Below, piece after piece: positions 1,873 to 13,696 of a stretch of 64,000 bases of DNA. This DNA comes from an uncultured Acidobacteriota bacterium (lineage in GTDB: Bacteria; Actinomycetota; Acidimicrobiia; Spongiisociales; ZC4RG35): NCBI GenBank assembly GCA_963725075.1, contig CAVRXA010000004.1, positions 3,578 to 67,577 of the forward strand, in the 5' to 3' direction. The translations under genes were made by a program, and so were the position numbers. Each line of letters opens with the position of its first letter. Within the stretch, counting starts at the first letter, position 1. The notes under the pieces are model-generated. The model was not told where the DNA came from and did not search any database. It saw nothing but the letters and a program-made list of their open reading frames with translations.

Positions 1873-2235
1873 GCAGAGGACTTTCTCCTGAACCTCCTCG
1901 TACTGGTGCAGCGCCACCAGGAAGGCGAGGAAGAGCACCAGCGACACCAGCAGGTAGGTGATCGGGATGATCCTGATCTCGAACGCGTTCAGCCCTTCGA
2001 TGTCGGCCGGCTTGGGGCCACGTGGGGCGTAGACCACGAAAAGCATCGAGGTGATCGTCAACCAGCCGAACACCGCGGCGCCGGTCACCAGGAACCCCAG
2101 CCGCTTGCCGAGGTTGGTGTAGTTGAACAGATAGATCGAGCCGTAGAACAGCGCCACGGCGGCGATGGTGAGGATGATCCCGGTGACGAAGAGGTTGGCC
2201 GAGAACAGCGACCGGAAGAACTCACGGAAGAACAA
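1837..2235 (-). CDS. Small membrane protein (3 predicted TM helices), last gene of the bc-type operon
   Basis: TTG start at 2235 with GGAGG RBS overlapping the cyt c 3' end; three hydrophobic segments. The true stop may be TAG at 1869-1871 if one A is extra at ~1884. Confidence 0.7.
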   Translation of the reverse strand: MFFREFFRSLFSANLFVTGIILTIAAVALFYGSIYLFNYTNLGKRLGFLVTGAAVFGWLTITSMLFVVYAPRGPKPADIEGLNAFEIRIIPITYLLVSLVLFLAFLVALHQYEEVQEKVLCLEPAAVIAEDL

Positions 2236-4144
2236 CGGTGGCCTCCTTCCCGTCCATGTTCCCACCACGCAGATAGCGGGCGAGCAACTCGATGTCCTCC
2301 AGGCTCAGGCTGGCGCCAAAAGCCGGCATTCGACCTGTGCCGAACCCGTTGAGGCCGTAGGGCGTCTCGGCCTCGGAGCCCCTTATCAGGAATTGGACCA
2401 GTAGGTCCTGCGCCGGGTCCACGTTCGCGTCACCGAACTGCACAGTCGGCCGACCGTCCCACAATGCCGGCCCAAATCCTCCCGAGCCCGCCTCCTGCGT
2501 GTAGGGGACACCTGCGCTGTAACCGGCGGTGTGACATCGGGCGCAGTTGGAATTGAACAGCCCGACTGCCCGCTCTGCTTCCTCGGGCGAGGACGCCATC
2601 GCCTCTGCCACCCCGGCGAAATCGATCGAATACAGCTGGGCTTGCTGGGACTCCTCGAGGTAGGCCAGGCCGCCCAAGGCGGTCTCAGTGAGATCCGCCT
2701 GGTTCTGCTCCGTCACCGAGAGGGTGGTCGCCATCGACTCCAGGTTGCCTACCAACCTGTCGGCCGTGGCGGCGTCAGGCTCCCCGCCGACCGAGGCCGG
2801 GTTGGTCGGATCGAGTGTGACCTGGGTGACCCCGGCCGGCGTGGTGGCGGTGATGGCGGCCTCGATTTGACCGTTGATGTCGGCCTCGGCGCCGCTCGAC
2901 AACCCGTCACCGTCGGGGTCGGAGCCCTCCTCGACCGCCGTGGTCGCCTCGGCCGCCAGGTCGGCGGCCCCTTCCACTGGCTCCTCGGCAGCTGCCGCCT
3001 CGTCCAGCGCCGCCACGAGCGCGTTGGCGCCATCGAGATCCTCGATCGGGCCCGGGACCTCGATGCCGGCTGTCTCCGCTGCAGCGCGGGTCTCTTCGAG
3101 GGCGGTCAACGAAGCCGGGCTGAGCCCGACAGCTGAGTCGACTGTCCCTTCCTCCATGGCCAACTCGATGGCCTCGATGTTCGTCGTGACAACCGGGTCG
3201 GTCTGACTTGCGAGCTCCAAGGCGGCGAGGGCATCGTCGGCCAGCTCGGCGTCGGCCACCTCGGGGTCGAGGGCGATCGGCTCCATGATCTGGAATCCGG
3301 CTACTGCCTCGGCTGAGATCTCACTGAGCTCCGTCTCGGCTGCATCGGAGATGCCGTCGGCGTCGGTGTCGATGCCGGTGCCTGCTCCGTCCAACACCTC
3401 TCTCGCCCGTGTGGCCATTGGAATCACCAGTGCGGCATCTGCGGGTGCCGACTCGATCTGAGCCACCACCTGACTCTGCTCGACAATGGCGGCCTCGACC
3501 GTTGCGTCGGCGGTGGCGAGCCTGTCTAGCGCAGTGTTGATCCCGGGCTCCACGTCGGCAAGGTTCTCGTCCTGCGTCACCTGAATGGTTGCCAGGTAAT
3601 TGACCACGTCTTCCACTTGCTGGTCGTTGAGCGGTCCACCGCCGGGGATGCCCCATGCCGGCATGGGAGTGTTGCCGCGGCCGTACGTGACCCAGAAGTT
3701 GACCTCGTCCTCGGCGTATCTGAAGAAGACGTCGTTGAGCGACGGAGCCGCCCACTCGACTGCGATTCCCGAGCGCTTCTCGACGTAAGGGGCGACGCCA
3801 CCCGACCCCTCCGGGCCATGACAGTTGAAACAGCCGAACTCCTCGACGAGGTGCTCGCCCCGGTCGATCGAGCCCTCGGCGAACTCCACGACGAAGCCCT
3901 CCTGTCGCTGCTGTTCGGTGAGGAAGTAGAGCGGGAGCGAAATGGCGAGGAACGCAGAGAAGGCAATCGCCGCCTTCTGCCCGCCCTCGAGCCGGCGGGT
4001 CTCGATCTTCTCGTCGTCGATACCAGGCCGAAGATTGGGAGCGACCTCCTCGCCACCCCGGTTGCGAATCGCCGAGACGAAGAGCATGCCCAGCCAGGCG
4101 ATCCCTGCGACCAGGGCGATGACCGTGATGATGTTGGCGGTCAT
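2222..4144 (-). CDS. Membrane-anchored diheme c-type cytochrome with long acidic inter-heme insert
   Basis: Two CxxCH motifs (CFNCH, CARCH), each followed by an MP(A)WG/MPAFG axial-Met motif; two N-terminal hydrophobic helices. Confidence 0.9.
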   Translation of the reverse strand: MTANIITVIALVAGIAWLGMLFVSAIRNRGGEEVAPNLRPGIDDEKIETRRLEGGQKAAIAFSAFLAISLPLYFLTEQQRQEGFVVEFAEGSIDRGEHLVEEFGCFNCHGPEGSGGVAPYVEKRSGIAVEWAAPSLNDVFFRYAEDEVNFWVTYGRGNTPMPAWGIPGGGPLNDQQVEDVVNYLATIQVTQDENLADVEPGINTALDRLATADATVEAAIVEQSQVVAQIESAPADAALVIPMATRAREVLDGAGTGIDTDADGISDAAETELSEISAEAVAGFQIMEPIALDPEVADAELADDALAALELASQTDPVVTTNIEAIELAMEEGTVDSAVGLSPASLTALEETRAAAETAGIEVPGPIEDLDGANALVAALDEAAAAEEPVEGAADLAAEATTAVEEGSDPDGDGLSSGAEADINGQIEAAITATTPAGVTQVTLDPTNPASVGGEPDAATADRLVGNLESMATTLSVTEQNQADLTETALGGLAYLEESQQAQLYSIDFAGVAEAMASSPEEAERAVGLFNSNCARCHTAGYSAGVPYTQEAGSGGFGPALWDGRPTVQFGDANVDPAQDLLVQFLIRGSEAETPYGLNGFGTGRMPAFGASLSLEDIELLARYLRGGNMDGKEATVVLP

Positions 4145-5019
4145 GCCCCGGCCACGGCGCTGATGCAGCTAGGTCCTTGCGGGTACTGGACGAGCAACAC
4201 CGGCGCCCGGGGCGTCTGGATGATCGTGCCGGTGCGAATGATGAGGTTGCCGCCCTGGTTCTCCACCACGAACCGGTCCAGGTTGCGCGGGGCGGGACCG
4301 CCGAAATATTGGCCGATGGCGTTGTACCTCGACCCGTGACACGGACATTCGAATCCCTGCGATGGGGCGCACCACGGCACCCGACACCCGAGGTGGACAC
4401 ATCGCATGTAGAGGGCCATCAGACCGTCGGTCTCCACGCCCTGGCCCTCGAACTGGTCGGAAAGCTCCTCGGGAGCAGGGACCAGGTAGGCCCGGGCCTC
4501 GGGAATGAACAGAGGGAGCACGGCGCCATCGGGGGTGAATACCTGAGTGCGCAGGTCGGAGATGGGGCCGGCGTCGATATCGGCGCCGAAGCCACCCGTC
4601 AGCTTGGGCCAGAAGAAGGCGAGGTAGTAGAGACCTTGGGCGGCGAGAAACGTCCCGAAGGTCGCAGCGATTGCCCGGTTGAAGAACTGACGCCGGCTGA
4701 CCCCGCCTTCCTCCGGAGACACCTCGACGATGCGCTGGGTCTCCAGGATCTCGACGACCGCATCCTCCTCGACCTCAACCGGTTCGGGCTCGACCTCGGG
4801 GGCCTCTTCCTCTACAGGCTCAGCTGCCTCCTCGACACGGGGCGGGATCAGAACGGCGGTCGACGACCGGTCGGCGGCCCGGGTCTCCGACGAGACCCCG
4901 GCCAGCGGATCGGCTTTCTCGACGGATTGGGAGCGGCGGTAGGCGACGGCAAATGCCCCGGCCGCCCCGAGGATCGCCACCACGGCGACCGCAATGAGGG
5001 CGGCGTTGGTCAGGGTCAT
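4141..5019 (-). CDS. petC: Rieske [2Fe-2S] subunit of the Rieske/cytochrome b complex
   Basis: CVHLGC and CPCHGS boxes; Tat-like SRRQFF before the TM helix. Confidence 0.92.
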   Translation of the reverse strand: MTLTNAALIAVAVVAILGAAGAFAVAYRRSQSVEKADPLAGVSSETRAADRSSTAVLIPPRVEEAAEPVEEEAPEVEPEPVEVEEDAVVEILETQRIVEVSPEEGGVSRRQFFNRAIAATFGTFLAAQGLYYLAFFWPKLTGGFGADIDAGPISDLRTQVFTPDGAVLPLFIPEARAYLVPAPEELSDQFEGQGVETDGLMALYMRCVHLGCRVPWCAPSQGFECPCHGSRYNAIGQYFGGPAPRNLDRFVVENQGGNLIIRTGTIIQTPRAPVLLVQYPQGPSCISAVAGA

Positions 5020-6074
5020 TCGAATTGCACCCAGTCCTTCAGGTCGTCGAAGTAGACACCGTCCTTCCAGGGATAGGAGAAGTTGAAGCCGAGGCCCCGG
5101 AAGAGGACGCCAAAGATCGTGAGTGTGGCGGCCCCCGCCAGGAACACCGAGTAGAGGGCGATGGCGAACTTGCGGTCACTGGGCCGCGTGGAGGGGTTCT
5201 TGTCGACGTAGGGGATCAACCAGAAGCCAATGAACCCGGTGATGGTCGGAATGGTCACCCCCGCAATCTGGGGATCGAAGTAGGAGAGCAGCTCCTGGAG
5301 GCCGAGGAAGTACCACGGCGCCTTCGACGGGTTGGGAGTGGCGTTGAAGTTGGCCGGGTCGAGCAGCGGGGAGTGAATGACCACAGACATGATCACTACG
5401 AGACCGGTGATCGCCAGCAGGGCACCGAACTCCATGAGCATCAGGTGGGGCCACGTGTTGACCTTGTCCGTTGGCTCGGCCTTGACCGTCTGGATGGCCC
5501 TGGCCTTGACCACGGTGAGCAGACGCTGCGTCCGCACGCCCTCGGGCGTGCCCTTCGGTGGCACCGTGGGACGGGTGCTCACCACAGCGGCCACCTTGCC
5601 GTTCCCGGCGCCGTTCCCGGACCCCGCGCCGTCGGTGGCGCCATCGCCCTCAGGGGCTGGTCGATCCTCCACTGCTGTCGCCACTGCGGCGGCGGCTGGT
5701 TCGACTGCTTCTACCTCCTCCTCCGATGGCGGCGCTTCGGTGGGTGGGGCGGGAGGCACATCAGCCTCGGTGTCGGCCACGATCACCGGCTCGGTCTCGG
5801 CTGCCGGCTCGACCGGCGCCTCTTCGGCCGGGGCGGGCTCATCATCGACCGACTCGACAGCCTCCTCGATCTCGGCGGAACGCTCTGCGGACTCCTCCAT
5901 CTCAGCAGCGACACTCTCCTCGGACTGGGCCGCTGGCGCGGGCTCGGCCGACGGCGGTGGGATGGGCGGAGCCTCACCCTTCATCTCGGCCAGCACCTGT
6001 TCGACGGGAAGGCCCAATGCCTTGGCCTTGGCCTCCGCCGACCTCCTGAGGAGACTCTCTGGAATTTCTGTCAT
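5016..6074 (-). CDS. petD: Cytochrome b subunit IV (PetD-like C-terminal half) with acidic N-terminal extension
   Basis: KVNTWPHL, NPSKAPWYFLGLQELL (PEWY-equivalent Qo motif), IPYVD; ATG at 6074 with GGAG RBS. Confidence 0.88.
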   Translation of the reverse strand: MTEIPESLLRRSAEAKAKALGLPVEQVLAEMKGEAPPIPPPSAEPAPAAQSEESVAAEMEESAERSAEIEEAVESVDDEPAPAEEAPVEPAAETEPVIVADTEADVPPAPPTEAPPSEEEVEAVEPAAAAVATAVEDRPAPEGDGATDGAGSGNGAGNGKVAAVVSTRPTVPPKGTPEGVRTQRLLTVVKARAIQTVKAEPTDKVNTWPHLMLMEFGALLAITGLVVIMSVVIHSPLLDPANFNATPNPSKAPWYFLGLQELLSYFDPQIAGVTIPTITGFIGFWLIPYVDKNPSTRPSDRKFAIALYSVFLAGAATLTIFGVLFRGLGFNFSYPWKDGVYFDDLKDWVQFE

Positions 6075-6084
6075 GACGACTCCT

Positions 6085-6861
6085 TTAGAGGGGCCCGGAG
6101 ATGCCGCCGTCCTTGCGCACTCGCCAGAAATGCACGGCAAGGAAGATCACGAGGATGAACGGGAACGCCAGGACATGCAGGACGTAGAAGCGGAGAAGGG
6201 TGGCGCCGGACACCTCGACACCGGCCAGTAGGGCGAATTTCACCTCATTGCCCACCACGGGAACGAAGCCGGCCATGTTGGTGCCCACCGTGACCGCCCA
6301 CAGCGCCAGTTGGTCCCAAGGGAGGAGGTAGCCGGAGAAGGAGAGCAGCAGGGTGAGGAAGAGGAGCACCACGCCGACGACCCAGTTGAACTCGCGCGGC
6401 GGCTTGTAGGCGCCGTGATAGAAGACCCGGCTCATGTGGAGGAACACCGAGAGGACCATGAGATGGGCCCCCCACCGATGCATGTTCCGCACCAGCGAGC
6501 CGAACGCCACATTGGTCGACAGAGCCTCGATGTCGGCATAGGCGGTCTCGGCCGAGGGCGTGTAATAGAACATGAGGAAGATCCCGGTGATGGTGAGGAG
6601 GATGAAGAGAAAGAAGCTGAGACCCCCCAGGCAGAGCGTGTAGGACAGCTTGACGCCGTGCCGCTTCACCTTCACCGGATGGAGGTGATAGAGCACGTTG
6701 TTCATCACCACGTATGACCGGTTCCTCGGGCTGTCCGAGTAGCCCTTCTTGAAGGGCGAGCCAGGGCGGAGGATCGACTCGGCCACCTGGGAGCCCCAGA
6801 GCTTGTCGCTCACCTCCTTGATCTTTTCTCCGATGCCGGTCTTACCGTTGCCGTTGGCCAA
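6085..6861 (-). CDS. petB: Cytochrome b6-like N-terminal cytochrome b
   Basis: Heme His pairs MHRW...FLH and LH-x14-H; LCLGG (heme ci Cys); GYLLPWDQ. Confidence 0.93.
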
Positions 6862-6869
6862 GCCGCCTC

Positions 6870-7319
6870 CTACCAGCGCATCCCGTAGGCATATCCATTT
6901 TTGAAGTCACGCTGCCCGGTGTCGAAATCCCAGGGGCGGCGGTCGAGACCCAGCTCCGCGGCCTGCTCGGCGAGCGACCCCTCGAACTTGCCCAGTGTGA
7001 TCACATTCGTTGGGCAGCGGTCGACACAGAGGGCGCATCGCGTGCATTCGTCCTCGTCGACCACGAAGAACCCGAGGTTCTGCGGGTCCTCACCGGGGTG
7101 GTCGACGTTGACACCCTCGGTGATGGCGTCCAACGAGAGATAGTGGATGCATTTCCAGGGGCAGATGTCGACACAGCCCTCGCAGAGGATGCACTCCGAC
7201 TGGTCGATGTGGAGGAACTGCTTCGGCCGCAGCTTGTCGGTGAAGTAGTCGCCCTCGACGACAGCGAGCTGATAATCGTCGCGGTACGGGGGAGTCTCGT
7301 CGACGACACCCTTGGGCAT
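6870..7319 (-). CDS. 2x[4Fe-4S] dicluster ferredoxin-like protein
   Basis: [12 protein letters not shown] and [12 protein letters not shown]. Confidence 0.92.
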
Positions 7320-7924
7320 CAGCCCTCACCCCTGACCAGCGGCCGCCCGTAGGGGGAGCGGGCCGGCGCCTTGTCGGCCGATGGAGGCGGACCCTTTGTC
7401 ATCTTCTGCAGCTGCAAGGCAAACACGGCCGCCACCCCAAGCATCACCAGGTGATACCCCATCGAGATCGAGTCCTTGATGGCAGCCCAACTGAGCTGTA
7501 CGTCGTTGCCCAACACCAGGACCGGCGGGATGGTGACGGCCACCCGTTGTGAGGACCAGTCGAGATCGGTCTGGGCGAAGTTGAGCCATTCCGAGGGAAC
7601 CATCCCGAAGATGATGACGAGCTCGATCCAGGTCACGAAGGAAGCGAAGAGGGCGCGGGCCCAGGTCATTCTCTGGTTCAGCACCCAGACGAACAGTGCC
7701 CCGACCACGAGCATCTGGGAGGCGCCGAACACCACCAGATAGCCGACACCTTTCAGCAAGTGGTTGCTCGGTATCCAATCGAAGATGCCCGCGTCCTGCT
7801 CGGGCGGGAGGCTCGTGTAGTGGATCCAGATCACCGCCACCACGAGACCGACGAAGCCCAGACCGAGCAGTCCCCATCCGATGGTCTTGCGTCTGCTGTC
7901 GCTCAGTTCTGCGAGGCGATACAT
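7319..7924 (-). CDS. Hypothetical membrane protein (4 TM), first gene of the bc-type operon
   Basis: Four hydrophobic helices; stop overlaps the ferredoxin start; high-GC coding pattern. Confidence 0.75.
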   Translation of the reverse strand: MYRLAELSDSRRKTIGWGLLGLGFVGLVVAVIWIHYTSLPPEQDAGIFDWIPSNHLLKGVGYLVVFGASQMLVVGALFVWVLNQRMTWARALFASFVTWIELVIIFGMVPSEWLNFAQTDLDWSSQRVAVTIPPVLVLGNDVQLSWAAIKDSISMGYHLVMLGVAAVFALQLQKMTKGPPPSADKAPARSPYGRPLVRGEG

Positions 7925-7943
7925 CTCTCGTCTTCGGGCACGG

Positions 7944-7961
7944 TTGTATACCTGTTCACGT
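7944..7961. promoter_or_regulatory. Putative Rex operator upstream of the bc-type operon
   Basis: TTGTATA-cctg-TTCACGT versus TTGTGAA-N4-TTCACAA (10/14), 20 nt upstream of the ATG at 7924. Confidence 0.45.
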
Positions 7962-7996
7962 CGTTTCTACCACAACCCGGGGCTCGTAAGAGAACC

Positions 7997-8051
7997 AGCG
8001 AACCCAGGGTTCTGGACTTCGGTGAGCGGTGCCTGCAACCCTGGGTTCGCT
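7997..8051. repeat. Perfect 15-bp inverted repeat with 25-nt spacer in the divergent promoter region
   Basis: AGCGAACCCAGGGTT (7997-8011) / AACCCTGGGTTCGCT (8037-8051). Confidence 0.85.
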
Positions 8052-8055
8052 AGTT

Positions 8056-9543
8056 ATGCTCCCGCCGTCCCGTTCCGCGACGAGGGAACCCTTGGCCGCA
8101 ACCCAAACTGCAGACATCAGGGCCCTCCTCGGGGCCGGAGATGAGGACCGCGTCGCCGTCGCCCACTTCCTGGTAGGGGCCCTCTTCCTGGTGCTGGCCG
8201 GTGTCTTCCAACTCCTCGCCCTCTTCTCGTTGCGGTTCGCCGGGCTCTCCCCGATCAGCTACGGCCGGGCCGAGTCGTTGGCCAACATCACCGTCATGCT
8301 CGGCTTTCTCGTGCTGACGCTTGCCGGTGGCGTCTATTACGTCCTGCCCCGGCTCACAGGCGCGCGACTCTGGCGAAAGGAGCTGGCCTACCTCGGGCTG
8401 CTCGGCGTCTCGGGTCTCGTGGTGCTCGACCTTCTGGCCGTGGTCTTCGGTCTCGGTGAGGGTCGACAGCCGTTTGGCCTGCCCTGGTGGCTCCACCTCC
8501 CGATGCTGGCGGTGCTCACCATTCCGTTCGCCGTCACGATGATGACCATCCGGCGCCGGGAGGAGAAGCGGAGTTTCGTCACCCTTTGGTTCGTCATGGG
8601 CGGCGTGGCCTGGCTGCCATTGCTGTACTTCGTCTACACGGCGGGCAGCCTGCCCTTCGTGGACTCGTTGGGTGCGGCGTACTCCGACGTCTTCTTCTCG
8701 GCCGGATTCGTCACCCTCTGGGTGTTCACCGTGGGCAGTGGGCTCTTCTACTACACCCTGGTCAAAGGGCTCGACATCCCCCTCGCCTCCCGCCAGCTGG
8801 CTTCAGTCGGCTTCTGGTCACTCGGCTTCGCCGCCGCATGGTGGGGGTCGGCGCAGCTCGTCTTTGGCCCCGGGCCGGGTTGGATCGACGGGGTGTCGGC
8901 TGCCCTGGGCCTGGCCTTCCCCATCGGCGCCCTCGCCAATGCCGCCAATGCCTCGCTGACCCTCCAGGGGCATTGGGAGGAGTTGAGGGACAAGCCGGGT
9001 GTTGTCTCGGGCGTCGTCGGTCTCTATCTGGGGGTGGCCGTGGCCATCCTGGCCAGTTTCGCCGCCTTCCCCTCCGTCGGATCGGTGACCGCACTCACCG
9101 CCTACTGGGAAGCGATCGAATACGTGGCTCTGTACGGCGTCGGCGTGCTGCTCGCCGCCAGCGTCGTCTTCGAGGCATTGCCCAGGTTGGCTGGCCGCGA
9201 GCCGGCCACATTGGATCGTCCGCGGTCCTTCAATCGGTGGACCGTCGTCGGGGTGGGCGGTGTCGGGGTGAGCATGATCGCGGCCGGGTTGGTCAGCGGT
9301 TACTCGTGGGTCGCGGGGTCGAACAGCGCCGCCTACGTCAACGCGGGGGAGGGCTGGGCCGCCGGGGCGGGGGCAGCCGACGTCCTGATGCTCGTCGCCG
9401 TTGGCTTCGGCATCGTGGCCTTCCTCGGACAACTTGCGTACGCCGCCACCGTGATCGGGACGGTCACGAGCGGCAAGGCCGTCCCCCAGGAGGTTCTGGT
9501 CTACGGCCCCGACCCTGATAGCGACGAGGACGCCGATGAGTGA
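8056..9543 (+). CDS. cbb3-type oxidase subunit I (CcoN)-like polytopic membrane protein lacking the canonical His ligands
   Basis: ~12 TM helices with CcoN-like landmarks ISYGR, YYVLPRLTG, LWF, FYYTLVK, GFWS..W.G, VFEALPRL; precedes a CcoO-like gene. Confidence 0.75.
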   Translation: MLPPSRSATREPLAATQTADIRALLGAGDEDRVAVAHFLVGALFLVLAGVFQLLALFSLRFAGLSPISYGRAESLANITVMLGFLVLTLAGGVYYVLPRLTGARLWRKELAYLGLLGVSGLVVLDLLAVVFGLGEGRQPFGLPWWLHLPMLAVLTIPFAVTMMTIRRREEKRSFVTLWFVMGGVAWLPLLYFVYTAGSLPFVDSLGAAYSDVFFSAGFVTLWVFTVGSGLFYYTLVKGLDIPLASRQLASVGFWSLGFAAAWWGSAQLVFGPGPGWIDGVSAALGLAFPIGALANAANASLTLQGHWEELRDKPGVVSGVVGLYLGVAVAILASFAAFPSVGSVTALTAYWEAIEYVALYGVGVLLAASVVFEALPRLAGREPATLDRPRSFNRWTVVGVGGVGVSMIAAGLVSGYSWVAGSNSAAYVNAGEGWAAGAGAADVLMLVAVGFGIVAFLGQLAYAATVIGTVTSGKAVPQEVLVYGPDPDSDEDADE

Positions 9544-10363
9544 GCTGAGTGCTGCCGCCGCTGCCGCGCTCGGCATCCCCGAAGCCATCGTGCAGCGCTC
9601 AGCCGCGGCCCGGGCTGAAGAAACCGGCATGACCGTGGACGAGGTGTTGGCCGCCTGGGCCGGTGGAGGAGACATCCCGCCACCGGCGGCACCTGCTCCC
9701 GTCGAGCCAGATGCGGCAGAGGAGCCGACCGCGCCTGCCGATGAGCCGGCGCCGGCGCCTGCGTCTTCGGCACCGACCCCTGTCATCGAGGTTCCTTCCG
9801 CCCCCGTCGTCGGAGCGACGGCTGCTCCTGGCAAGCCACCGGTCCTGGTCGGAGAGGCCGACAACCCGATCGCCGTCTTGGTCGGTGCCGTGGGTCTGTT
9901 CGTCGCCCTGTTTCTGGTTGGTGTCGTCGGCCCCGCGTTGCCTACCGAGAACCCCGGGGCGCGGACCAGTGACCTGCCCTACACCGAGACGGCCCTGCAC
10001 GGGCAGGAGATCTACCAGTCGGTCGGTTGTGCGTCCTGTCATACCCAGATGGTGCGTCCCGTGGTGGCGGATGTCGGTCTCGGGGCTGTGTCTCTGAACG
10101 ACACCAATCAGGTGTTGGGGACACGCCGTTTCGGCCCCGACCTGTCCAATGTCGGGGCGCGAGTCTCCGCCAGCCAGATCGAGGCGATCATCCTCGGGCT
10201 CGACGACCATCCCTCCCTTTCCCTTTCATCAGAAGATCTCGATGCCCTGGTGGCGTATCTGGTCGAGTCGGCCACGCTCGAGGAAGCCCCACCTGGTGAG
10301 CCGACCGAAGAGGAGCCCGCCCCAGAAGGTGACGTGCCCACCGAGGAGACCGCCGCGTCATGA
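9536..10363 (+). CDS. ccoO: cbb3-type subunit II (CcoO)-like monoheme cytochrome c
   Basis: GCASCHTQMVRP and GTRRFGPDL resemble the CcoO motifs GCxxCHSQxIRP and GSKRTGPDL; one TM helix. Confidence 0.8.
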   Translation: MSELSAAAAAALGIPEAIVQRSAAARAEETGMTVDEVLAAWAGGGDIPPPAAPAPVEPDAAEEPTAPADEPAPAPASSAPTPVIEVPSAPVVGATAAPGKPPVLVGEADNPIAVLVGAVGLFVALFLVGVVGPALPTENPGARTSDLPYTETALHGQEIYQSVGCASCHTQMVRPVVADVGLGAVSLNDTNQVLGTRRFGPDLSNVGARVSASQIEAIILGLDDHPSLSLSSEDLDALVAYLVESATLEEAPPGEPTEEEPAPEGDVPTEETAAS

Positions 10364-11409
10364 GCGATCTGAGCGCCGCCGCAGCCGCCCTCGGCATCCC
10401 GGAAGCCATCGTCCAGCGCTCGGCTGCCGCCCGTGCCGCCGAGACAGGGATGACGGTCGACGAGGTGCTGGCAGCCTGGGCCGGGGGCGGGTCCGTGGCC
10501 GGGTCGCCGGCAGCACCCTCGGAGGAGGCGCCGGCCGCTTCGGCCGAGGCACCGGCAGCAACCGAGGAAGAAGCTCCCCCCTCCCCGCCTGCGGCGGTAC
10601 TCCCCCCTTCGGGGGGAGAAATGGCCGAGCCTGTGGCCGCGGTGCCCTCCGGCCCGGTGACCCGATCTCCTGTCCCAGCCGAGGTGACCGCCGCCGAGGC
10701 TGCCGGGCTGCCCGAGGTGATCACCGTCCCCACGGCGGGCATCAGGGAGCGGACCAATCTCGCCATCCCACGCTGGTTGGCCGCGGTGATGCTGATCATC
10801 CCCGCCTTCGCCCTCTTCGCTCTGGGCGGTTCCGCCACCGGTGAGTGCGGTGAGAACACCGAGCTAGCCACCAACGTCATAACCGGCCAGGTGGTCAACT
10901 GTGACGGGACCGAGTTCACCGGCTCGGGTGCCGGTGGCGGGGGCGGCGACTTCATCGCCATGGGAGAGGACGTCTATCTCAACGTGGCCAGCTGCGACGG
11001 ATGTCATGGCGCCCAGGGCCAAGGCGGGGTCGGTCCGGGCTTCTCGGGGGTAGTCACCACTTTCGGTTCCTGCACCGATCACATCGAGTGGGTCACGCTC
11101 GGTTCGGTCGGATTCCAGGGCGAAGGCCGGTCGACATACGGCGACACCGACAAACCGATCGCTGGAGGTATGCCGGCATTCGGCACGACTCTCACCGAGG
11201 AGCAACTGGCCTCGGCGGTCGCCTTCGAGCGGGTCCGCTTCGGTGGCGCCGATCCGACAGAGACTCTCACCGACTGCGGCCTCGCCCCGGCGGAGGGCGA
11301 GGAGGGAGAGGCTCCCGGCGAGACCACACCCGACGGCGAGCCGCCGGCGGAGGGGGAAACGACGACCACGGTGAGCGGCGCAGCGGCCGCGCTCGCACCG
11401 GCCTCATAG
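10360..11409 (+). CDS. Membrane-anchored monoheme cytochrome c (CcoP-position subunit)
   Basis: CDGCHGAQGQGGVGP, GGMPAFG axial Met, one TM helix; ATGA overlap with the upstream gene. Confidence 0.88.
   Translation: MSDLSAAAAALGIPEAIVQRSAAARAAETGMTVDEVLAAWAGGGSVAGSPAAPSEEAPAASAEAPAATEEEAPPSPPAAVLPPSGGEMAEPVAAVPSGPVTRSPVPAEVTAAEAAGLPEVITVPTAGIRERTNLAIPRWLAAVMLIIPAFALFALGGSATGECGENTELATNVITGQVVNCDGTEFTGSGAGGGGGDFIAMGEDVYLNVASCDGCHGAQGQGGVGPGFSGVVTTFGSCTDHIEWVTLGSVGFQGEGRSTYGDTDKPIAGGMPAFGTTLTEEQLASAVAFERVRFGGADPTETLTDCGLAPAEGEEGEAPGETTPDGEPPAEGETTTTVSGAAAALAPAS
10575..10621 (+). repeat. 47-bp palindromic (REP-like) element, copy 1, in-frame within the cytochrome c gene
   Basis: 43/47 identical to 23014-23060; two hairpins CCGCC-tgc-GGCGG and CTCCCCCC-ttc-GGGGGGAG. 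Confidence 0.8.
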
Positions 11410-11685: not shown

Positions 11686-11716
11686 GTAACCACCGTGGGT
11701 GACCGATAATGGACAC

Positions 11717-11864
11717 GCACGGATGGAGGGTCAACCGTTCCCCTCATACCAAGGGCACGTTCGTCCAAGGTGTGAACGGATAGCCTCCCAGCCCGCCCCA
11801 CGGTACGGAACCCTCCTTCGTGCAGATGAGGCCCCCGCCACGCGTGGGGGCCTCATCACTTTTC
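11717..11864 (+). ncRNA. Putative structured ncRNA, 6S-like long hairpin with central bubble, plus terminator
   Basis: GATAAT -10 at 11705-11710. 11717-11738 pairs with 11800-11823; 14/13-nt C-rich bubble; apical stem 11753-11786; terminator hairpin follows. Confidence 0.6.
11825..11864 (+). terminator. Intrinsic terminator
   Basis: 12-bp stem GATGAGGCCCCC / GGGGGCCTCATC followed by ACTTTTC. Confidence 0.75.
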
Positions 11865-11898
11865 GGCGCACCGATCGTGGTCTGCCATCGTGTGAGCG

Positions 11899-11997
11899 TT
11901 GAGACCCGCCACCGCCGTCGTCTTCGTCATCTTGCTGCTTCTCATCGCTGCCGCCGGCATCATCCAGCTGACGTCGATCCTGTCCCAGCCAGGGTGA
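11899..11997 (+). CDS. Putative 32-aa single-TM small protein (not in the ORF track)
   Basis: TTG start; MRPATAVVFVILLLLIAAAGIIQLTSILSQPG*; overlaps the convergent gene end by 38 nt. Confidence 0.4.
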   Translation: MRPATAVVFVILLLLIAAAGIIQLTSILSQPG

Positions 11998-12793
11998 CCG
12001 CCACGCCCGCCGACAGGTTCAACTCCTCGTCGGCAGCGCCCTCCCGAATCGCTATGGCAATCAGCCCGGCCGAATCGACATGCACCAGCGCCTCCCCGGG
12101 CTCGACATCGGAATAGGTGGCAGCCCACGGGATCGTGTGGAGAGTGGCGCCGACCTTCATCGTCAACACGGATCCTGGCGAGACGCCGACCGCCGCCAGG
12201 TCGTCGGGACCGATGTTGGTCTGAACGTTCCCGAACCGATCCACCCACCACGCCTCGCCGGTGACCAGGCTTCCCTGCGTCTCCGGCAGCGGGAGCAGCA
12301 ATGGCTGCACGGCCTCGGGACCAACCTCGGGACCGAGATCCTGGATCGCCGCCTCCCCCGAGGCAAGAAGGGCAGCCGCCGGGGCGAACACATCTCGGCC
12401 GTGAAAGGTCTCGCCCGGCGAGGGAATCCTCGCCTCGGGATTGTCGATCGAGACCATCACCCGGGCCCCGCCCACCATCGCCACTGCCGGCGAAAGCACC
12501 CCGTTGTCCGGACCGACGAAGAAGCCCCAGTCTGTCTCCAGGGCCAGCGCCTTGCGCTCGGAGCCGACACCGGGGTCGACCACCACGAGGGCGACTCCTT
12601 CCGGGAGATACTGGATGGCACGGGTCAGACTGAGGGCGGCGGCCTTCACATCACCCCGCGGAGTGCCATGGCCGACATCGATGACGCGTGACTCCGGCGC
12701 CAGCTTTGCCAGCACCCCATGCACCACGCCTACGAACTCGTCGGAGTGACCAAAGTCGGACAGGAAGCTGATGGGGAGTGCGTTGTCGGTCAT
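11960..12793 (-). CDS. SAM hydrolase / SAM-dependent halogenase family (DUF62)
   Basis: LSDFG, VVDPGVG, GPDNG, TFHGRDVFAP, DRFGN. Confidence 0.92.
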   Translation of the reverse strand: MTDNALPISFLSDFGHSDEFVGVVHGVLAKLAPESRVIDVGHGTPRGDVKAAALSLTRAIQYLPEGVALVVVDPGVGSERKALALETDWGFFVGPDNGVLSPAVAMVGGARVMVSIDNPEARIPSPGETFHGRDVFAPAAALLASGEAAIQDLGPEVGPEAVQPLLLPLPETQGSLVTGEAWWVDRFGNVQTNIGPDDLAAVGVSPGSVLTMKVGATLHTIPWAATYSDVEPGEALVHVDSAGLIAIAIREGAADEELNLSAGVAVTLAGTGSTSAG

Positions 12794-12814
12794 GCGTGGT
12801 CCTATATTGCCGCG

Positions 12815-13696
12815 ATGTCCGAGACGAGCCACGACGGAGTCGCGCGGGAGGTGTCCCGTGCGAATGTGGCCATGCTCCTGGGCAGCGTCGACACGGGGAA
12901 GACGACCCTCGCTCTACAGGCGGCTCGTCTCGCCCTCGGCGCCGGCCGGACCGTTGCGATCGTCGACGCCGACGTGGGCAACTCGACCGTCGGGCCCCCG
13001 GCGTGTGTCGGGTTGAAGATCCTTCGCACTCCAGAGGACCTCGAAGACGTGGCGACACCGGACCGGCTCCACTTCGTGGGAACCATCTCCCCCGCGCGAC
13101 TCGTCCTGCAACAGGTCGTCGCCACGGCGGCGATGGTGGACGTGGCCCGCGGCATGGCCGACCTCGTGATCCTCGATACGACCGCAGTCGTTTCCGGGGT
13201 CGCCGGTGAGACTCTCAAGTACCACAAGGCGGAGCTGTGTCGACCGGACAAGGTCGTTGCCCTGCAACGTGGCGGTGAGATGGAGCCGGTGGTCGGAATG
13301 CTGCGCCGGTTCCTGGGCATGGAGGTGACCGTCACCCCCGCCGACCCCAATGTGATGCCCATCTCCCCTGACGAGCGGGCCCAGCGGAGGACCGAGTCGT
13401 TTGCCCGGGCGCTGGCTCCGCCACTCGATCGGTGGAAGGTCCGTCCCACGGTCTTCGCACCGACGCTTCCGATGGGTCTCAACCTGGGACGGCTCGACGA
13501 TGTGCTGGTCGGCGTACAGGACGAGGACGGTGGTTGTCTGGGCCTCGGGATCCTCGGCAACGAGGAAGACGGGCTCAGGGTGATGACCAACACCGGCGAA
13601 GGGATGAAGGGTCTCCGTCTCGGATCGATGCGTCTCGACCCGGTGACGCTCGAGGCCAGCGTTATCAGCCTGCGCGAGGTGATGTTCGGGATTTAG
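12815..13696 (+). CDS. Clp1/Grc3-like polynucleotide 5'-kinase family P-loop protein
   Basis: Walker A GSVDTGKTT, DADVGNSTVGPP, Walker B ILDTT, LKYHK. TATATT -10 lies 6 nt upstream of the ATG (leaderless). Confidence 0.8.
   Translation: MSETSHDGVAREVSRANVAMLLGSVDTGKTTLALQAARLALGAGRTVAIVDADVGNSTVGPPACVGLKILRTPEDLEDVATPDRLHFVGTISPARLVLQQVVATAAMVDVARGMADLVILDTTAVVSGVAGETLKYHKAELCRPDKVVALQRGGEMEPVVGMLRRFLGMEVTVTPADPNVMPISPDERAQRRTESFARALAPPLDRWKVRPTVFAPTLPMGLNLGRLDDVLVGVQDEDGGCLGLGILGNEEDGLRVMTNTGEGMKGLRLGSMRLDPVTLEASVISLREVMFGI

Follow-up and report, generated by a model that had tools for sequence, protein, structure and literature searches.

Why should membrane subunits that belong to separate respiratory modules begin with the same short N-terminal element? 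This question is raised by a stretch of 64,000 nucleotides on contig C4 (CAVRXA010000004.1, assembly GCA_963725075.1) of an uncultured bacterium of the class Acidimicrobiia; the whole stretch is called the window below. It contains two divergent operons, 2222-7924 on the reverse strand and 8029-11409 on the forward strand, which form a nine-gene respiratory cluster. Three of the encoded proteins carry the element: the subunit IV/PetD-like protein of a Rieske/b6 operon and, on the opposite strand, a FixO-like cytochrome c and a second membrane-anchored cytochrome c. A sequence-only reading of the window had described a helical tag that either ties the complexes together or recruits one cytoplasmic partner such as the ferredoxin. 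In this study, this N-terminal tag domain is called the handle, and its two flavours are called class A and class B. Our preferred answer, held tentatively, is that the handle may be a common docking domain for one shared partner.

Handles encoded in the window

The three handles are as follows.

5976..6074, reverse strand: class B handle, N-terminus of the PetD-like protein (MTE-IPESLLRRSAEAKAKALGLPVEQVLAEMKG)
9539..9667, forward strand: class A three-helix handle of the FixO-like cytochrome c (AlphaFold predicted local distance difference test, pLDDT, 93)
10363..10488, forward strand: class A three-helix handle of the second cytochrome c

The PetD-like tag proper spans residues 4-33 (nt 5976-6065, reverse strand), and the first class B copy has no helix 1. 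All three motifs lie where the sequence-only reading had placed them, and its statement that the two cytochrome tags are nearly the same under purifying selection was borne out. The tags are identical in 32 of 33 residues, and 17 of the 33 codons differ, 16 synonymously and one non-synonymously (dS 1.29, dN 0.021, dN/dS 0.016). Because dN/dS is so low and dS is saturated, the identity reflects purifying selection on the protein and not a recent copy.

The relation of the PetD-like motif to the cytochrome tags had been read from a shared pattern of residues. A class A hidden Markov model (HMM) made from 114 cytochrome-type tags and no PetD-type tag was searched against all 40,660 six-frame open reading frames (ORFs) of the genome. 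It retrieved the PetD-like tag of the window at E 2.5e-8, and the next match (noise) stood at E 0.17. In the reciprocal search, an HMM of 12 foreign PetD-type tags retrieved the cytochrome tags of the window at 2e-11 to 3e-10. By profile comparison, then, the PetD-like motif is a significant homologue of the cytochrome tags and represents the same pattern.

Fold, tether and topology

An alignment of 127 tag copies from 78 Acidimicrobiia loci (alignment A5) gave a module of about 45 aa, in which MSELSAAAAAAL, the segment preceding GIPE, is conserved as a helix (helix 1). AlphaFold2 run on this alignment returned a compact unit (mean pLDDT 93, predicted TM-score 0.74) with helices at residues 2-11, 15-29 and 33-41, whose consensus sequences are xxLLxxAAxxLG, PExLVxRSAxARAxxxG and sVDEVLxxWAGG, respectively. 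The three helices recur in the full-length model of a fourth carrier described below, where they are followed by a linker with pLDDT <50 and then by transmembrane (TM) helices. The handle is therefore predicted to be an independently folding three-helix cytoplasmic domain. The earlier description as a helical tag was correct in recognizing a shared module but understated it, since the module is a domain of two flavours that occurs in arrays of up to seven.

Each handle of the window is separated from the membrane by a long tether.

5451..5975, reverse strand: acidic Ala/Pro/Glu tether of the PetD-like protein, disordered, 175 aa, before TM helix 1
9668..9856, forward strand: Pro/Ala-rich tether of the FixO-like protein, 63 aa
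9857-9913, forward strand: TM anchor of the FixO-like protein, then the haem domain with CASCH at residue 165
10489..10755, forward strand: Ala/Pro/Glu tether of the second cytochrome c, 89 aa
10756-10812, forward strand: TM anchor of the second cytochrome c, then the haem domain with CxxCH at residue 212

The tethers of the window consist of Ala, Pro and Glu to 51-62% and are net acidic, with 37 D+E against 11 K+R in the PetD-like protein. Across carriers, the tether measures 60-200 aa and the handle sits at its N-terminal tip. We infer from established topology that the handle and the tether are cytoplasmic, because the haem domains are periplasmic behind one anchor and subunit IV starts on the n-side. 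This agrees with the sequence-only reading, which had placed the motif in the cytoplasm ahead of the linker and the first TM helix.

A fourth carrier beside the aa3 oxidase genes

HMM search of the whole assembly found seven handle copies. In addition to those of the window, three are on contig C5, and the seventh is on contig C15, outside the window. Contigs C4 and C5 run collinear for about 70 kb, with 92-95% identity (about 94%); therefore, C5 represents a second strain in the bin and the second respiratory locus is no duplication. The count of three carriers given by the sequence-only reading holds for the window but is incomplete for the genome, since the copy on C15 belongs to a fourth carrier next to aa3 genes.

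7560-8742 of locus L001 (C15:55560-56742): fourth carrier, frame-broken

In this carrier, a class A handle and an acidic linker are followed by a frame break and then by a 355-aa multi-TM ORF. At the break, near position 55,745 of C15, the acidic linker shows a 2-nt gap when compared with two orthologues. The 355-aa frame past the break is intact and about 95% identical to relatives, and the orthologues elsewhere are intact proteins of 380-490 aa. It stems either from faulty assembly or consensus calling in a GC-rich repeat where strains are mixed, or from a frameshift that arose very recently. The protein was modelled with seven TM helices (pLDDT 68). It belongs to no Pfam or NCBIfam family, and its 7-TM model has no meaningful neighbour in the PDB. 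The gene adjoins or sits inside the ctaC-ctaD-ctaE-ctaF operon with its CtaG-like gene in five of five genomes compared; in a 1-Mb genome it directly adjoins the CtaG-like gene and shares the strand of the cta genes. Because of this neighbourhood, the link between complexes is wider than was first read. A single-sequence genome search gave no match to the fourth carrier in family f9 or in other orders, a negative that carries no weight.

Distribution and carriers

The handle was present in 41 of 41 related genomes, typically in four copies each. In a class-wide sample it was found in 153 of 301 genomes, which comprise nearly all of the window's order together with a family of streamlined 1.0-1.1-Mb genomes; the latter retain about four copies per genome. 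In a phylum-wide sample (401 genomes, 249 genera), the handle occurred in the window's order only, and the one extra weak match, in another order, is probably the short form described in the next section. Handle-bearing records are labelled as Acidimicrobiia metagenome-assembled genomes, and those of loci L050, L051, L054, L055 and others are titled 'uncultured Acidobacteriota bacterium'. The latter title is probably a label error by the submitter.

Among 1.84 billion representative proteins, 403 clusters matched the handle at E up to 1e-3. Carriers were inspected in the 63 longest clusters (at least 228 aa) among 150 matches listed of these 403. All of them were PetD-like proteins, FixO-like cytochromes, CBB3-III-like cytochromes or the 7-8-TM protein, and no carrier outside these four families was seen among the clusters inspected. 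Matches without a TM helix were rejected as soluble carriers, as they were frameshifted high-GC junk, truncated calls or gene fragments. No unrelated carrier was found among them and the PetD-like motif aligned significantly, so neither of the outcomes that the sequence-only reading had named as refutations came about. In the carriers inspected, the handle occurs solely on membrane proteins of the quinol-to-oxygen route, namely subunit IV of Rieske/b6, the cytochromes of a haem-less CcoN-like module and the ctaCDEF-adjacent 7-TM protein. It was not mentioned in the literature searched.

Evolution in step and the minimal form

The tags of one genome resemble each other more than they resemble their orthologues. 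In a comparison of 38 genomes, FixO and cytochrome c tags within a genome are 81% identical, compared with 66-71% (0.66 and 0.71) for tag orthologues between genomes and 68% for cross-comparisons. Synonymous divergence between the paralogues is mostly saturated (median pS 0.59). Many lineage-specific residues are common to both cytochrome tags, and for one derived Ser the two paralogues use different codons, AGC and TCG. In genome G061, the aa3-linked carrier has the same lineage-specific residue string although it lies 1 Mb away. The PetD tags do not have the lineage-specific changes of the class A tags. This evolution in step is compatible with episodic conversion as well as with co-evolution with a common interactor. 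In one genome (L080), the two tags are identical in DNA, which indicates recent conversion.

The PetD-like proteins of other orders of the class (loci L135-L145) have no three-helix domain. They carry two copies of an N-terminal helix of about 18 aa on short acidic or Gly-rich linkers, one of the form M-x-E-[IV]-P-E-H-L-[LK]-[KR]-R… (MTEIPEHLLKR…) and the other of the form [KR]-I-P-A-H-L-L-E-R-S… (SRIPAHLLERSK…). The core helix IPEHLLKR is conserved on PetD across these orders. Since helix 2 (hPExLLxRS) is invariant throughout the class, its conservation suggests that it is likely the functional core.

Copy number, flavours and gene fusion

Handles are arranged in tandem, one to seven per protein, with Ala/Pro-rich linkers between them. 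The PetD-like proteins have one to seven copies and the second cytochrome c has one to five. Class B (…VLAEMKGE, ending EMKGE) occurs on subunit IV only, and class A (…VLAAWAGG, ending WAGG) occurs on both cytochromes and on the aa3-linked 7-TM protein. In some families, the CcoN-like and FixO-like genes are fused into one ORF of about 650-670 aa.

L130 7474-9489; L131 8528-10504; L084, L103, L090 and L104: fused CcoN-FixO loci

The fused FixO has neither a free N-terminus nor a tag. In the fused loci, the second cytochrome c has two to five tags in five of six cases, and in the unfused loci it has exactly one in 38 of 38 (Fisher p 5.5e-6, a value that ignores phylogeny; the fused cases may be only one or two clades).

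These arrays and flavours bear on two other explanations of the handle. In the first, the tags would associate with each other, homotypically or class B with class A, and would join the Rieske/b6 dimer to the CcoN-like module and to aa3 in a supercomplex tied together from the cytoplasmic side. Supercomplexes of complexes III and IV are established in actinobacteria. The division into two clean flavours, class B only on complex III and class A only on the modules downstream, speaks for such an association, tandem arrays would supply its multivalency, and class A tags within a genome change together even at a distance of 1 Mb. However, the AlphaFold unit is a self-contained monomeric bundle, the copy numbers are uncorrelated (class B 1-7 while class A about 3-5), and the changes specific to a lineage in class A tags are missing from the PetD tags. 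We regard tag-tag association as unlikely. A strictly heterotypic arrangement, in which class B on the Rieske/b6 dimer binds class A on the haem-less CcoN module and the aa3-associated 7-TM protein in the manner of Velcro, seems quite improbable. If it were true, Acidimicrobiia would build and tune a III-IV megacomplex by multivalent tethered cytoplasmic mini-domains and not by transmembrane or periplasmic contacts; to our knowledge, no respiratory chain is organised by a cytoplasmic mini-domain Velcro.

In the second, the handle would act in biogenesis or quality control, being read by an assembly chaperone or insertion factor or capping the tail against FtsH-type proteolysis and so controlling turnover. 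N-terminal peptides are what chaperones of the NarJ type recognise. Since the domain always stands at the N-terminus, it emerges from the ribosome first; its carriers are subunits of multi-subunit complexes and must be assembled into them, and in other orders the short form is a peptide at the very start of the protein. Up to seven internal tandem copies are nevertheless hard to square with an N-terminal cap or signal. Moreover, the tether itself would be the liability being capped, which leaves the tether unexplained, and the PetD-like and 7-TM proteins have no evident cofactor to insert, as no CxxCH haem-binding motif was found in either. Such a role is slightly less likely still.

A shared docking partner as the proposed function

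The reading that we prefer is that the handle may be a common protein-docking element that binds one shared partner, and we put it forward as a tentative one. The handle would give three respiratory modules one cytoplasmic address through this partner, the disordered tether would serve as its fly-casting leash, and valency would be set by the number of handle copies. The docking interpretation draws on the predicted fold, the selection on the tags, their evolution in step and the derived residues that they share. It also draws on the limitation of carriers to four families, the aa3 link in five of five genomes, the tandem modularity and the association between fusion and valency. Finally, about four copies are kept in 1.0-1.1-Mb genomes and the core helix is conserved in other orders.

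Several points weigh against this interpretation. No partner of the handle was identified, and no Rosetta-stone fusion to a soluble domain was present among the clusters inspected out of the 403 that matched. In so small a domain, the conserved polar residues (E, R-S, R) might form salt bridges that stabilise the fold instead of a binding face. Old gene conversion might account for the concerted evolution, and both tags of L080 have identical DNA. In addition, the copy number of class A does not follow that of class B.

Respiratory supercomplexes are held by membrane and periplasmic contacts. The window's order and the marine, streamlined Actinomarina-like lineage spend 100-450 residues per subunit on a cytoplasmic leash and its conserved knob, on every quinol-to-oxygen module. 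Should the handle bind a single hub or other handles, it would represent a new way to organise or regulate an electron-transport chain. If the docking interpretation is true, the handle would also provide an experimental entry to the question of why this clade keeps a haem-less CcoN module beside Rieske/b6.

Layout of the respiratory locus

The cluster comprises a six-gene Rieske/b6 operon on the reverse strand and the CcoN-like module on the forward strand, and all nine genes are kept down to 1-Mb Actinomarina-like genomes.

2222..7924, reverse strand: Rieske/b6 operon, six genes
2222-4144, reverse strand: dihaem cytochrome c
4141-5019, reverse strand: Rieske protein
5016-6074, reverse strand: subunit IV/PetD-like protein
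5016..5450, reverse strand: membrane core of the PetD-like protein, 3 TM helices (Pfam Cytochrom_B_C)
6085-6861, reverse strand: cytochrome b6
6870-7319, reverse strand: 2x[4Fe-4S] ferredoxin
7319-7924, reverse strand: 201-aa membrane protein (memb201), without family
8029..9543, forward strand: CcoN/COX1-like subunit (ccoN match 1e-25)
9536-10363, forward strand: FixO-like monohaem cytochrome c
10360-11409, forward strand: second membrane-anchored cytochrome c, CBB3 subunit III-like

The ferredoxin gene bears directly on the earlier proposal of a common partner, in which the handle would recruit the 2x[4Fe-4S] ferredoxin of the operon to the n-side of the complexes. The gene is present in the cluster in the window and in genomes G045, G061 and G032. 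However, the cluster of G227 keeps five to six tags with no ferredoxin gene between memb201 and cytb6, and the aa3-linked carrier is far from the ferredoxin gene. The handle is also found on cytochromes that face the periplasm and on the aa3-linked protein, neither of which has an evident need for ferredoxin. The proposal gained nothing from this analysis, and we consider ferredoxin recruitment very improbable.

Despite its ccoN match, the CcoN/COX1-like subunit contains just three His (46, 156 and 315) and cannot provide all six of the usual metal ligands. The module in which both cytochromes bear handles has this subunit as its scaffold. For the PetD-like core, the top NCBIfam match was ExtQ (3e-13), a b-type cytochrome membrane protein from the selenite/tellurite reduction operon, with the chloroplast-type subunit IV behind it (3.5e-3). 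In the dihaem cytochrome c, the haem domains are about 330 aa apart, and the acidic spacer between them gave a weak match to bacterial TSP3, a Ca-binding repeat.

Downstream (3') of the second cytochrome c, a DUF62-type (SAM hydrolase-like) gene at 11960-12832 (reverse strand) and a conserved stretch at 11700-11900 that yields spurious ORF families recur in 30-37 of 78 related loci, and synteny reaches past the respiratory cluster through them. A scan of the 78 loci for a recurrent unknown soluble neighbour returned only the DUF62-type gene and frames over this conserved non-coding stretch.

Comparison with known systems

No relative of the handle was found in Pfam, NCBIfam, the PDB sequences or Foldseek. 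The best Foldseek match was a designed helical repeat (E 0.75), and an hmmsearch of A5 against the PDB sequences reached E 0.087 at best. The handle represents an unannotated domain family that could be added to the databases; the fourth carrier, which bears the labels 'hypothetical' and 'MFS permease', would then be annotated correctly.

The tri-helical helix-turn-helix (HTH) families (Xre-like-HTH PF20432, HTH_23, HTH_31, Sigma70_r4_2) share with the handle three short helices and a tight Gly turn between helices 2 and 3. This likeness suggests another function, in which the handle would be a nucleoid-tethering HTH or else an amphipathic helix on the membrane surface. The sequence has an HTH-like A-x3-G-h-[ST] turn, and multi-tag proteins gather summed weak Pfam scores to these families; P0131 reaches 39.5 bits on PF20432 with none of its repeats significant singly. 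However, with a threshold of E 0.1 no HTH model is matched by a tag taken singly; the best values, on unrelated HTH models, are E 0.11-0.19. Unlike in HTH domains, class A helix 3 (TVDEVLAAWAGG) has a net charge of -2 and is not basic. The whole class A tag is net acidic, helix 2 of class A has a hydrophobic moment of 0.05 and a net charge of -1, and the tethers are strongly acidic. Membrane and DNA binding were set aside on charge and hydrophobic moment, and we regard them as barely conceivable.

The genome's own FtsZ (C2:41359-42489, reverse strand), which ends in DDVLDIPTFVQG, also resembles the handle in that a short conserved helix-forming element stands at the end of a disordered tether. 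Its tail LDIPTFVQG resembles the start of helix 2, LGIPEAIVQR, and the short form of other orders is a peptide of the FtsZ-tail type. By the same logic, the handle might mimic the FtsZ C-terminal peptide and dock respiratory complexes on SepF or another tail reader, which would place them relative to the division site; the genome has a single SepF gene, which adjoins ftsZ. However, the hydrophobic pair is at P+3/P+4 in the handle and at P+2/P+3 in the FtsZ tail DIPTFVQG, a shift of one residue. Unlike the FtsZ tail (C-terminal consensus D-[IV]-P-x-F-[LM]-[RK]), the handle is N-terminal, forms a three-helix domain and is repeated up to 7x. Its hydrophobic face is probably buried in the bundle, as judged from the three-helix model, and no clade-specific SepF paralogue was found. 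This mimicry is highly improbable.

The closest architectural analogue is the peripheral-subunit-binding domain (PSBD; Pfam E3_binding PF02817), which is found on the Ala/Pro-linked swinging arms in the E2 chains of 2-oxoacid dehydrogenases. The docking of partner proteins is its sole role. Handle and PSBD alike are helical mini-domains (about 35-45 aa) on long flexible Ala/Pro-rich linkers, like beads on a string, and on the surface their helices start (xP.V.R..A) and end (DV.A.LAGG) in a similar way. Homology was tried and rejected. PF02817 matches the two true PSBDs of the genome (C24 and C7; 55-65 bits) and none of the seven tags, hhalign of A5 (127 tags) against these two PSBDs gave a probability of 0.5% over 9 aligned columns, and a Pfam scan of the tags alone gave no E3_binding match at E up to 10. 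Unlike the PSBD, the handle lacks the GxGxxGRI loop, has three helices and is carried by membrane respiratory proteins instead of a soluble E2 core.

Among respiratory proteins, cytochrome cy of Rhodobacter capsulatus, like further membrane-tethered cytochromes c in supercomplexes of III and IV, is TM-anchored, has a long flexible Ala/Pro-rich linker and serves both bc-type and cbb3-type complexes. The handle-bearing cytochromes likewise combine an N-terminal TM anchor with a long flexible Ala/Pro-rich linker. In cytochrome cy, however, the linker is periplasmic and the haem domain swings on it, whereas here the linker and the handle are on the cytoplasmic side of the anchor, remote from the haem.

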